From Escherichia phage vB_EcoM_G2540-3, in sequence record MK327944.1: a DNA stretch of 64,000 nt; one strand, given 5' to 3'. Shown here piece after piece: positions 29,562 to 38,325 of this stretch (position 1 is its first letter; each line of letters starts with the position of its first letter). A model generated the notes under the pieces. The model was not told where the DNA came from. It did not search any database and saw only the letters and a list, made by a program, of their open reading frames with translations. Position numbers and translations under genes: made by a program.

Positions 29562-31149
<1,588 letters not shown>

Positions 31150-31176
31150 AATAAAATGGGCCTTGCGGCCCACTCC

Positions 31177-31679
31177 TTAAAAGTATTTTTTAAAACTCAT
31201 CATAACTTTATCATCAACATCATTATCAATCTGTGCAACAAGGTAAGATGACAGTTCTACTTCTTGTGGCGCGGATTGAACATTATCAGAATTAAGATAT
31301 TCACGAATCCAAGGATATGGATGTTTAACCGGAGCATCGGTAATTGGGCATGGAAGACCGCACTGTTTCATACGAGATACAGTTAAGTAATCAATAAAGC
31401 TCCACATGCTATTTGTATTTAATCCAGGAACATCACCATCTTTAAATAAATGAACTGCCCAATCTTTTTCTTGGCGGTTAACTTCCATGAAAATATCAAC
31501 TGCTTCTTGTTCACACTCTTGAGCAATTTTAACCCATTCATCGCCATCAGTGCCAAGTTGAAGTTGACGAATAATATATTGAGTGCCTTTAAGGTGAAGC
31601 TGCTCATCACGTGCAATGAACTTCATAATCTTGGCATTACCTTCCATGATTTCCATATTCTTGTGGAAGTTAAAGGTAC
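31177..31679 (-). CDS. nrdB: Ribonucleotide reductase small subunit NrdB, exon 2
   Basis: Continues R2 sequence …(C)TFNFHKNMEIMEGNAKIMKFIARDEQLH…; 3' splice site inferred after G at 31680. Confidence 0.7.
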
Positions 31680-32770
31680 CGTTATGTTCGATTGAGCTCG
31701 CTAATTCTCAACCCGTTCTCTTATGAACTGCTACATATTACTATGCAGACCAGACTATATCACAATCCCAGAGGGATTCTCCCCATTTCGAGTCGCTTGA
31801 CCCTACGTCCGAAGACTAGTCGTTGAACCTTGCTTTGCAATTGTCGCCGTGCCATCGTTTATATGTTGATGGTGATAAATCTTTCTTATCACAATATGGA
31901 CAATTCAATTGAATTCTATTTGGATTTAATTTACATCTGTCATTATGTTTTAGATAAAATCCAGGACCTTTACCAATGTGACCGCAGAAATCACATGTGA
32001 TTTCTTTTTGTGCAGGATGGGTCCCGTTCTTAACCATTTCTAATGTTTTTGCTGATGTTCTTTTCTTATGGTCTTCTGACAAGAAATGATGTGAACTGTC
32101 ATTTACCCGTTTTGATTGAGTTTCTGACTGCATTTTACCACCGCAAAATACATGAGTACCTTCTTTTATAGCTGCAATATTGCGTTCTTTAACTTTTGCA
32201 ATATGCTCAGCTTGTTGAAAATTATGTATACCTAATGCAACTCTATTTAAATTAGATTTACGCTGTATTTCACCGTCTAAAAGATGAAATGTACCATTTT
32301 CTATCTTAGATTTAATAGAGGCAATATTTTTAGCTCGTACTTCAGGGATATTAAAAATCTGGATTTCTCTAGATTTTGCGGCTTTAGAAGCTAATTCAGA
32401 AATTTCTTCAGGAGAATATTTCATTCTAAGCTTTATAGCATGACAAGCCTGGTAATCTTTTTGAGCTAAATGTATATCATAATGTTCCTGTATAGAAAGG
32501 CACATCAAATTATCTAAATCATTATTTTCACGGTTACCGTCTTTATGATGGATTTCGTATGTTCTTCCATCGGAATCTTTAGGTATAGGTCCGTTAGCAT
32601 CTATCCAAATTTTTCTATAGTTCAATTGTGCATCCTCTTAAAAGTATAATCATATTTATATTATACTAATTAAAGGTGCAAGCAAAACCTTGGCTGCTAG
32701 TTTTCCTATAAAGGACTTTCCAGCAATTAAAGGAGTTTTCGATAAACGTTACCGTTTAAAGGCGCATTTT
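31680..32770 (-). mobile_element. Group I intron in nrdB (about 1091 bp) carrying I-TevIII
   Basis: nrdB frame interrupted by an in-frame stop right after …FYVSFA; exon 1 ends in U, intron ends in G, junction restores a Cys codon as in other R2 proteins. Confidence 0.65.
31816..32625 (-). CDS. I-TevIII: Intron-encoded HNH homing endonuclease I-TevIII (full length, apparent TTG start)
   Basis: 269 aa, HNH motif EIHHKDGNRENNDLDNLMCLSIQEH, C-terminal Zn-finger-like CxxC pairs; inside nrdB intron. Confidence 0.8.
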   Translation of the reverse strand: MNYRKIWIDANGPIPKDSDGRTYEIHHKDGNRENNDLDNLMCLSIQEHYDIHLAQKDYQACHAIKLRMKYSPEEISELASKAAKSREIQIFNIPEVRAKNIASIKSKIENGTFHLLDGEIQRKSNLNRVALGIHNFQQAEHIAKVKERNIAAIKEGTHVFCGGKMQSETQSKRVNDSSHHFLSEDHKKRTSAKTLEMVKNGTHPAQKEITCDFCGHIGKGPGFYLKHNDRCKLNPNRIQLNCPYCDKKDLSPSTYKRWHGDNCKARFND

Positions 32771-33446
32771 ACGCAAAAGATACATAAAAACGAATAGCTT
32801 CTAAGGCATTAATAACGTGTAAACAGAGGTAAAGAGACTTCATTAAAGCACGTTTAGCTTCGGCTTCTTGTTTAATAGCTCGGTTTAAACGAAAGTCGGC
32901 ATCAGGAGATTCTTTAGCTAGTTCTACAAATTCTTTAGCATTTTCCCATTCACGGGTTTTAACCAAGACATCATCATAATAACGTCCAATGGACTCAGCG
33001 CGTTTCATAATATCTTCATCTAATACAATCTCATCAAATACCTTTGATGGGTCAGTATAAAGATTTCGCATGATATGAGTATATGAACGGCTGTGAATAG
33101 TTTCACTAAAAGTCCATGTAGCAACCCATGTATCAAGACTTGGGTCTGAAATTAATGACATAAGTACTGCAGACGGTGCACGACCCTGAATGCTATCCAA
33201 AAGTGATTGATACTTCAGGTTATTAGTAAAAATATCTTGCTGATACTGAGGAAGCTTGTTAAATTGTGCAGCATCCATCATTAAGTTTACTTCTTCAGGA
33301 CGCCAGAAAAATGACAACTGCTTTTCGGTTAAATCTTCAAAAACTTTATGACGTTGAATATCATAACGCGCAATACCAAGACCTGAACCAAAAAACATAG
33401 GTTCTTTTAAAACATCAACTGGATTTGTATTAAAAACTGTGCTCAT
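32771..33446 (-). CDS. nrdB: Ribonucleotide reductase small subunit NrdB, exon 1
   Basis: MSTVFNTNPVDVLKEP… through …ALEAIRFYVSFA; start ATG at 33446 overlapping mobE stop. Confidence 0.75.
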
Positions 33447-34177
33447 AAATTTTTCCTCTTTAAAATTCTGCCGTGTTTCCAACCTGGCGGTATAATATCA
33501 TCTTTACCTATAAGCGTGCATTCACTTCCATTATTAATCCATTTCTTACCGCGGATTCCTTTATAATCTCTTGGTTTTATTTTGTCAAACTTTGCATCAA
33601 GTTGATATGACCATCTAAATCCATAAGCATATTGAAATTTACCCTCGGCACAATATTTGATATTTGACCCGTTTCCATTAACTGACCGGGACGCTGCCGC
33701 AATAGAGTGAAAGGTTTCTATGAAATCCCCATCTAATGAGAATTTATGTATTTCTACAGATGGGCACGCATATCTATTCACGTTAGATACATGCTGTTTA
33801 GTTTCGTTTTTATGATGCTTGCCTAGCATCCCTTTAGGATGAGGATTATTTTTCCAATATTTCTTAAAGAACTCAGAATTAGCTTTAGCAAATAATTTTC
33901 TGTGTAAGCTGTACAATCTGTTATTAATTCTATTGCCAGCTTTATCTGTTGCCATTAACGTTAACGCAGAGGCAAGACCAAAATGGCCTTCATTTATCTT
34001 ACATAGTAATAGATGAGCTATAAAATGTTCTCTGGCTGTTAATTCAACTAAATTTTCCTTATCATCAGAACCTCCCATACATTTAGGGATTATATGATGT
34101 GTCTCTTTATATTCTAGTAAAGATTCCCGAGCCTGAGCTCGGGAAATTAGGTCGTTATAGATTTTTTGATAATTCAT
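33443..34177 (-). CDS. mobE: HNH homing endonuclease MobE
   Basis: 244 aa, HNH motif HHIIPKCMGG…NLVELTAREHFIAH; sits between nrdA and nrdB as T4 mobE. Confidence 0.85.
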   Translation of the reverse strand: MNYQKIYNDLISRAQARESLLEYKETHHIIPKCMGGSDDKENLVELTAREHFIAHLLLCKINEGHFGLASALTLMATDKAGNRINNRLYSLHRKLFAKANSEFFKKYWKNNPHPKGMLGKHHKNETKQHVSNVNRYACPSVEIHKFSLDGDFIETFHSIAAASRSVNGNGSNIKYCAEGKFQYAYGFRWSYQLDAKFDKIKPRDYKGIRGKKWINNGSECTLIGKDDIIPPGWKHGRILKRKNL

Positions 34178-37309: not shown

Positions 37310-38325
37310 CATTATGTTCAGATAAGGTCGTTAATCTTACCCCGGAATTATATCCAGCTGCATGTCACCATGCAGAGCAGACTATATCTCCAACTTGTTA
37401 AAGCAAGTTGTCTATCGTTTCGAGTCACTTGACCCTACTCCCAAAAGGGATAGTCGTTAGGCATTTATGTAGAACCAATTCCATTTATCAGATTTTACAC
37501 GATAAGTAACTAATCCAGACGAAATTTTAAAATGTCTAGCTGCATCTGCTGCACAATCAAAAATAACCCCATCACATGAAATCTTTTTAATATTACTAGG
37601 CTTTTTACCTTTCATCTTTTCTGATATTTTAGATTTAGTTATGTCTGAATGCTTATGATTAAAGAATGAATTATTTTCACCTGAACGATTTCTGCATTTA
37701 CTACAAGTATAAGCAGAAGTTTGTATGCGAACACCGCACTTACAAAACTTATGGGTTTCTGGATTCCAACGCCCGTTTTTACTTCCGGGTTTACTGTAAA
37801 GAGCTTTCCGACCATCAGGTCCAAGTTTAAGCATCTTAGCTTTAACAGTTTCAGAACGTTTCTTAATAATTTCTTCTTTTAATGGATGCGTAGAACATGT
37901 ATCACCAAACGTTGCATCAGCAATATTGTATCCATTAATTTTAGAATTAAGCTCTTTAATCCAAAAATTTTCTCGTTCAATAATCAAATCTTTCTCATAT
38001 GGAATTTCTTCCAAAATAGAACATTCAAACACATTACCATGTTTGTTAAAAGACCTCTGAAGTTTTATAGAAGAATGGCATCCTTTTTCTAAATCTTTAA
38101 AATGCCTCTTCCATCTCTTTTCAAAATCTTTAGCACTTCCTACATATACTTTATTGTTTAAAGTATTTTTAATCTGATAAATTCCGCTTTTCATAAATAC
38201 CTCTTTAAATATAGAAGTATTTATTAAAGGGCAGTCCTACAATTTAGCACGGGATTGTCTACTAGAGAGGTTCCCCGTTTAGATAGATTACAAGTATAAG
38301 TCACCTTATACTCAGGCCTCAATTA
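37310..38325 (-). mobile_element. td group I intron (1016 bp) carrying I-TevI
   Basis: 5' end reads UAAUUGAGGCCUGAGUAUAAGGUGACUUAUACUUG… after exon …CUUGGGU; 3' end …AUG; length 1016 nt as recalled for T4 td intron. Confidence 0.9.
37457..38194 (-). CDS. I-TevI: Intron-encoded GIY-YIG homing endonuclease I-TevI
   Basis: 245 aa, MKSGIYQIKNTLNNKVYVGSAKDFEKRWKRH… with C-terminal Zn finger and HTH. Confidence 0.95.
   Translation of the reverse strand: MKSGIYQIKNTLNNKVYVGSAKDFEKRWKRHFKDLEKGCHSSIKLQRSFNKHGNVFECSILEEIPYEKDLIIERENFWIKELNSKINGYNIADATFGDTCSTHPLKEEIIKKRSETVKAKMLKLGPDGRKALYSKPGSKNGRWNPETHKFCKCGVRIQTSAYTCSKCRNRSGENNSFFNHKHSDITKSKISEKMKGKKPSNIKKISCDGVIFDCAADAARHFKISSGLVTYRVKSDKWNWFYINA

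Follow-up and report, generated by a model that had tools for sequence, protein, structure and literature searches.

Gene nrdB of Escherichia phage vB_EcoM_G2540-3 (sequence record MK327944.1) is split by a group I intron that carries the gene for the homing endonuclease I-TevIII. We describe this locus within a window of 64,000 nucleotides (nt), the whole stretch of DNA that was analysed. The split gene is on the minus strand, a point left unstated in the first-pass annotation; all features given below lie on that strand, with coordinates running from high to low. Exon 1 (33446..32771, 676 nt) comes from the list of open reading frames (ORFs) and its translation, and aligns with nrdB of phages RB3, T4 and NBG2. 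Its ORF starts with ATG at 33446, begins MSTVFNTNPVDV... and ends ...ALEAIRFYVSFA (...FYVSFA; the exon itself ends ...TTT GCG T). A TAA at 32771..32769 follows at once, made up of the last exon 1 base, T, and the first two intron bases. The intron (32770..31680, 1091 nt) starts AAAAUGCGCC and ends ...GAACAUAACG, its last base being the terminal G. Exon 2 (31679..31177, 503 nt including the stop codon) opens with GT ACC TTT AAC at 31679, and the frame that carries ...MEIMEGNAKIMKFIARDEQLHL... reaches 31177. Within loop L6a of the intron lies the I-TevIII ORF (32625..31816), 269 codons plus TAG with a TTG start.

Where precisely does the insert begin and end? With a 300-nt query taken from both exon ends we found phages whose nrdB is uninterrupted. 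In phage vB_EcoM_NBG2 the gene is intronless and is annotated as one coding sequence (CDS) of 1179 nt. Aligned to the window, it leaves a single gap of exactly 32770..31680 (1091 nt), with the junction TTTTGCAT|GTACC, and a shift of one base in either direction creates mismatches. The gap is fixed to the base, and the insert therefore begins after U and ends with G. The T at 32771 together with the GT at 31679..31678 makes TGT (Cys), which is followed by TFNFHKNMEIMEGNAK, and the joined exons encode a protein of 392 amino acids that matches Pfam Ribonuc_red_sm. This spliced product aligns end to end with Escherichia coli R2 (1piy; E=1e-125); the junction is free of gaps and the Cys is conserved, with ...AIRFYVSFACTFNF in the window against ...AIRFYVSFACSFAF in R2 (...FYVSFA-C-TFNF). 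The first-pass annotation had put an insert of about 1.09 kb at 31680-32770, had the nrdB frame stop after ...FYVSFA and resume about 1.09 kb downstream, and had proposed that splicing after U and after G restores a Cys codon. It was right in each respect, and exactly so for the coordinates.

To what class does the insert belong? Searched with Rfam at the gathering threshold, the whole window gave no match, a false negative that arises from the ORF insertion. An E-value search of 31500..32950 located RF00028 at 31971..31731 of the minus strand, with 34 bits and E=1.4e-6. This alignment is correct in its 3' half (J6/7, P7, P3', P8, P7' and P9); its 5' half falls in the wrong place, since the true one is 0.8 kb distant. 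The ORF-less allele of phage PD112, whose retained intron sequence is, deletions aside, that of the window in alignments, scored 68.6 bits (cutoff 50; E=1.3e-16) over model positions 1-253, which is the whole model. The group I identity first claimed from the letters alone is thus upheld by Rfam in both alleles.

With L6a replaced by a tetraloop, the core of the window intron folds at minimum free energy (MFE) into P1-P6, P6a, P7.1, P7.2, P8, P9, P9.1 and P9.2. In P1 (32774..32762), GCGU|A is matched to the internal guide UGCGC, which sets a U-G wobble at the 5' splice site; the P2 hairpin (32758..32743) reads UAAACG-GUAA-CGUUUA. The 5' core block (32735..32682) contains the 5' strands of P3 (CUCCUU, 32735..32730), P6 (32693..32692) and P6a (32688..32682), and both strands of P4 (32725..32720 and 32700..32695) and P5 (32715..32712 and 32707..32704). 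The 3' core block (31838..31690), drawn from the Rfam alignments, the ORF-excised fold and the pair counts, runs from the 3' strand of P6a through P9.2. In it follow the 3' strands of P6a (31838..31832) and P6 (31829..31828), the two hairpins P7.1 (GUC-UUCG-GAC, 31816..31807) and P7.2 (GGGUC-AAGC-GACUC, 31803..31790), the 3' strand of P3 (GGGGAG, 31784..31779), and the hairpins P8 (AUCCC/GGGAU, 31777..31765), P9 (31748..31731), P9.1 (31728..31715) and P9.2 (31713..31690). P7, the guanosine-binding helix (31821..31817 with 31757..31753, GACUA/UAGUC), is the expected pseudoknot. Both P7.1 and P7.2 are predicted in the MFE fold, between P7 and P3', in an insert relative to the Rfam consensus. Such hairpins mark subgroup IA2, which includes the T4 introns, and the P1-P9 layout of the nrdB insert with P7.1 and P7.2 is one that we take to be IA2.

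The proposed pairing was examined in four distinct alleles, those of the window and RB3 (counted as one), T4, Salmonella phage SEA1 and PD112. All 90 pairs form in every allele, against 37-46% for slid controls. Compensatory double changes replace A-U by G-C in P2 of SEA1 and in P9 of T4; these two, together with four single changes that preserve pairing and no broken pair, come from four closely related sequences, and 36 of 500 shuffles did as well. P3, P7 and P8 do not vary among the four alleles and are therefore without covariation support, though all of them pair.

The first-pass annotation took the ORF for a 269-amino-acid HNH/zinc-finger endonuclease, full-length I-TevIII, and the protein comparisons agree. 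Over 269 of 269 positions the product matches phrog_12324, 'intron-like DNA endonuclease' (E=1.4e-192), and residues 4-48 match Pfam HNH_3 (E=6e-13). P6a', P6', J6/7 and P7 supply its last eight codons and the TAG, and here the coding sequence overlaps the RNA core. The HNH residues H26, H27, N39 and H48 are all present; substitution of any of the four by alanine abolished cleavage by I-TevIII (PMC1865063). Present too are C211, C214, C242 and C245, which coordinate zinc in two fingers of the form CX2CX12-13HX3C (PMC1865063), here at C211-C231 and C242-C263. The protein falls in the same 90% cluster as TEV3_BPR03 and is identical at 267 of 269 residues to RB3 I-TevIII (AIT72961.1), the differences being D23Y and G177S. 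Against phage AV121, with which it has Y23 in common, it differs by G177S only. The identical protein, S177 included, is QBO65636.1 of Escherichia phage vB_EcoM_G2540-3, annotated 'hypothetical protein'. A sequence search of the PDB with I-TevIII gave no meaningful match, the best (E=0.28) being an unrelated deaminase. Residues 74-114 (32406..32284) match Pfam FlgM (anti-sigma-28) at 26.2 bits, just over the cutoff of 25; this stretch between the HNH motif and the zinc fingers is helical and charged, and the match is probably due to chance.

How close is the RB3 intron? In RB3 (KM606994) the intron occupies the same site in the same host gene and has the same length of 1091 nt; the activity, dimerisation and cleavage site of its I-TevIII and the mobility of the intron are published (Robbins et al. 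2007, PMC1865063). Only 3 of the 1091 nt differ from the window (99.73% identity), all of them in the ORF, and the RNA flanks on both sides are 100% identical. I-TevIII is annotated at homologous coordinates in the RB3 record, as the same 269-codon ORF with the same TTG, and the gene order nrdA, HNH ORF, nrdB, denA, rnlA is that of the window. Eddy and Gold, in 1991, are reportedly the source for the RB3 nrdB intron with I-TevIII.

The anatomy of the insert, its exact boundaries, its near-identity to RB3 and its intact catalytic and zinc-binding residues are best explained, almost certainly, by a T4-like phage (Tequatrovirus) whose nrdB contains a full-length RB3-type group I intron. An nrdB intron with intact I-TevIII is already known, a textbook element annotated in dozens of phage genomes. 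How would it act here? The pre-mRNA would fold into the P1-P9 core, and exogenous guanosine would attack after the U of the P1 U-G pair (32771|32770). The freed exon 1 would then attack after the terminal G (31680), and the union of T with GT would restore the Cys codon and give the 392-amino-acid NrdB. The ligated junction would read ...UUUGCGU|GUACC, that is, ...TCTTTTGCGT|GTACCTTTAAC. Ribosomes on unspliced RNA would be halted by the TAA lying across the 5' splice site. In homing, the intron would be copied in by recombinational repair. The homologous T4 nrdB intron splices itself in a guanosine-dependent way, as was reportedly shown by experiment by Gott, Shub and Belfort in 1986 and by Sjoberg et al. 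in the same year, and this also tells against an insert that stays in the message.

Where does translation of I-TevIII start? The region reads AAGAGG ATGCACAA TTG AAC TAT... The Shine-Dalgarno sequence AAGAGG (32639..32634) stands 8 nt before the TTG, which is the spacing (about 8 nt) of the T4 intron endonucleases (PMC2988022). Directly abutting it is an out-of-frame ATG, the first codon of a mini-ORF, ATG CAC AAT TGA (MHN-stop, 32633..32622), whose stop overlaps the TTG. The RB3 GenBank record and the AV121 annotation both start I-TevIII at this TTG, and the numbering of the published mutants (H26, H27, N39, H48, C211, C214, C242 and C245; PMC1865063) fits no other start. The first-pass annotation, which had the ORF begin at TTG with an out-of-frame ATG just upstream, therefore read the region correctly. 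As a start in its own right the ATG (32633..32631) is ruled out: it is out of frame, is followed by a stop after three codons and lacks Shine-Dalgarno spacing. In the literature examined, we found no discussion of the overlap between mini-ORF and UUG.

The RNA around this start is predicted to form a hairpin (32680..32629). In the fold of the 101 nt that reach from upstream into the ORF, an inner stem of 8 bp is enclosed by the pairing of GCACCUUU with AAGAGG.UGC (MFE -19.1 kcal/mol), and 18 of 18 pairs are kept in the four alleles, with one change of U-A to U-G. In its loop lies TATAAATA (32660..32653), the T4 late-promoter motif. A scan of 31100..33600 for sigma-70 promoters and terminators found no more sites than in shuffles. 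In I-TevI and I-TevII as well as in I-TevIII the Shine-Dalgarno sequence is sequestered in early and middle transcripts and freed in late ones (PMC2988022). Transcripts of the window phage started upstream would likewise hold the Shine-Dalgarno sequence paired in the hairpin; the late promoter inside it would give a shorter RNA with that sequence free, and initiation would follow at the UUG. The timing of expression and the use of UUG are inferred for this phage.

Just upstream lies a putative I-TevIII operator, TTTTGCTTGCACCTTTAA (32687..32670), which agrees with the homing site TTTTGCGT|GTACCTTTAA in 16 of its 18 positions; the local alignment score was reached by 3 of 2000 shuffles. A review has proposed, without experiment, that such a homing-site copy is an I-TevIII operator (PMC2988022). 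Autorepression by I-TevIII is likewise putative, and is proposed by analogy with I-TevI. Might the whole start region work as one combined control module, by which a toxic endonuclease is held down until infection is late? It would be made up of the Shine-Dalgarno sequence in a hairpin, the late promoter in the loop, a weak UUG that overlaps the stop of the mini-ORF, and the 16/18 homing-site copy, to which I-TevIII would bind as autorepressor. We put this forward tentatively, and are inclined to doubt it. The homing-site copy may also be a relic of the ORF first invading an ORF-less intron.

What weighs against an active, full-length RB3-type intron in this phage? Splicing and endonuclease activity are here carried over from homologues. 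The RF00028 score of the window falls short of the gathering score of 50, since the core is divided by the 0.8-kb ORF. The covariation test is weak: it draws on four close relatives, 36 of 500 shuffles equalled it, and the structure was derived from the same sequence. D23Y and G177S set the protein apart from RB3 I-TevIII. The UUG start is a matter of annotation and deduction, and is not explicit in the literature found. The Shine-Dalgarno hairpin appears in both the MFE and the centroid fold, with a modest z of -1.91. Finally, TATAAATA is not enriched in the window (11 copies against 9.35 expected), so the call of a late promoter rests on position and literature.

Could the intron splice and yet carry an I-TevIII allele that is inactive or, with its UUG start and G177S, barely expressed? 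Its spread would then be passive, or would depend on homing in trans by the neighbouring HNH endonuclease (34177..33443), as with T4 MobE. A free-standing ORF with HNH and NUMOD1 does lie immediately upstream of nrdB, and trans homing of the defective T4 intron by MobE is documented (PMC2790892). The 90%-identity cluster of I-TevIII includes truncated forms of 97, 87, 229, 105 and 73 amino acids, so many that decay of the gene must be frequent, and S177 sets the window protein apart from both RB3 and AV121. Yet the ORF is full length, with every mutationally defined catalytic and zinc residue intact. Residue 177 comes after the HNH motif (the first ~50 residues) and ahead of the zinc fingers (which begin at C211), and lies outside the dimerisation region mapped to 194-241 (PMC1865063). 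In RB3 the gene shares both this TTG start and the sequence upstream of it, yet the RB3 intron is mobile (PMC1865063), and the neighbouring ORF has only its ~55 N-terminal residues in common with T4 MobE. Since all known functional residues are intact, we do not favour an inactive allele, and consider it improbable.

That the insert is not spliced at all, a free-standing endonuclease cassette having divided nrdB into parts that yield two polypeptides (nrdB_1 and nrdB_2), we regard as very remote indeed: several GenBank records do give NrdB as two separate CDSs on either side of a 'homing endonuclease', and phage Aeh1 has a split ribonucleotide reductase gene that is reassembled at the protein level (PMC3045599), yet the flanks of the ORF make up a complete group I core recognized by Rfam, U and G stand at the boundaries as is canonical, intronless relatives lack the insert to the base, and exon 2 starts with neither a start codon nor a Shine-Dalgarno sequence, the annotated 'second CDS' beginning at an internal Met 22 nt in. 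Correctly annotated, the locus is a single nrdB gene that is spliced and whose intron encodes I-TevIII. Many database records, that of QBO65636.1 included, list two nrdB fragments and an unnamed ORF instead.

How widely is the full-length intron distributed, and in what forms? In the phage collection, 634 records match a 1451-nt region that includes the exon flanks, 128 match the 3' core of the intron, and 84 carry the segment absent from T4 and hence the long form. Among relatives the intron measures 0, ~304, ~592-598 or 1091 nt. The shortest form is that of PD112 (vB_vPM_PD112, MH837626 1351..1654), an ORF-less intron of 304 nt at the same nrdB site, with the same RNA core and both P6a arms. 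It lacks 785 nt (window 32629..31845), deleted between two direct repeats of ACAATTG, one of which (32629..32623) contains the TTG start while the other (31844..31838) abuts the 3' arm of P6a. Two nt are also lost from its TATAAATA motif, and its record annotates the nrdB locus as two partial NrdB CDSs. Alleles of such differing length illustrate the cycle of gain, decay and loss of homing endonuclease genes.

Have intron and host gene travelled together? Between RB3 and the window the exons differ at 34 of 676 nt (exon 1) and 11 of 503 nt (exon 2), or 2-5%. In SEA1 (Gelderlandvirus, OQ927978 408..2679) the RNA parts of the intron are 96-97% identical to the window and the ORF 87%, whereas exon 1 is only 72% and exon 2 only 75% identical. 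In both comparisons the exons have diverged far more than the intron, an indirect signature of mobility, and we conclude that the intron moved between lineages much more recently than the host genes diverged. The long form in the window phage looks active and is therefore expected to convert intronless relatives in mixed infections. The ORF annotated in SEA1 is shortened at its N-terminus, starting MCLSIQEHY, which leaves the first part of the HNH motif outside the annotation. Two records named for Pseudoalteromonas phages match the 3' core of the nrdB intron at 80-90% identity. A distant search found sequences resembling the P7-P3'-P8 core in Staphylococcus, Pectobacterium, Klebsiella, Yersinia and other phages; these are presumably related group I introns.

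The surroundings of nrdB contain further endonuclease genes. The free-standing ORF (34177..33443, 244 amino acids, HNH and NUMOD1) sits between nrdA and nrdB, its TGA overlapping the nrdB ATG (ATGA). Only its first ~55 residues are common to T4 MobE (56% nt identity overall); it is the counterpart of the RB3 gene annotated mobE/nrdB.2, and AV121, NBG2 and PD112 have no ORF between nrdA and nrdB. Its identification as Hef is ruled out: Hef is without known motifs (PMC2988022), and this ORF has HNH and NUMOD1. Downstream of nrdB lies the counterpart of denA (31152..30742), with a GIY-YIG domain, which is the endonuclease II gene in RB3 and T4.

How does the window intron compare with that of T4? 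The first-pass annotation described the T4 intron as about half the size, with a truncated ORF, and the long form as that of RB3; the records and the literature (PMC1865063) support this, at 598 against 1091 nt. In T4 (NC_000866) nrdB spans 1765 nt, and its intron has the same insertion site and core, with 98.66% identity over the aligned intron positions, and the same upstream promoter, hairpin and Shine-Dalgarno region. Aligned to the window, the T4 intron lacks 491 nt (window 32561..32071, ends that depend on the alignment within a few bases), besides single bases at 32707 and 31683. The deletion removes approximately residues 22-185 of I-TevIII and, as 491 is not a multiple of three, shifts the frame. 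What remains, as annotated, is a product of 97 amino acids without the HNH domain; its ATG stands in a different frame, and past the deletion it returns to the frame of I-TevIII; its family, phrog_27406, matches I-TevIII residues 173-269.

A second insert lies in td, the thymidylate synthase gene (38325..37310, 1016 nt). It follows TTGGGT, begins TAATTGAGGCC and ends ...ATAATG before CTACCGTTTAAT, and it contains a GIY-YIG-like ORF of 245 amino acids (38194..37457, MKSGIYQIKNTLNNKVYVGSAKDFEKRW...). By its appearance it is the group I intron of T4 td, with I-TevI. The td and nrdB introns are alike: each is a phage group I intron in a gene of nucleotide metabolism, meets a stop codon right at its 5' splice site and encloses an endonuclease ORF, and the T4 td intron, like that of nrdB, has a late promoter and a hairpin that sequesters the Shine-Dalgarno sequence (PMC2988022). 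They differ in the endonuclease itself, for I-TevI is a monomeric GIY-YIG enzyme, whereas I-TevIII, an HNH enzyme, cleaves DNA as a dimer (PMC2988022, PMC1865063).

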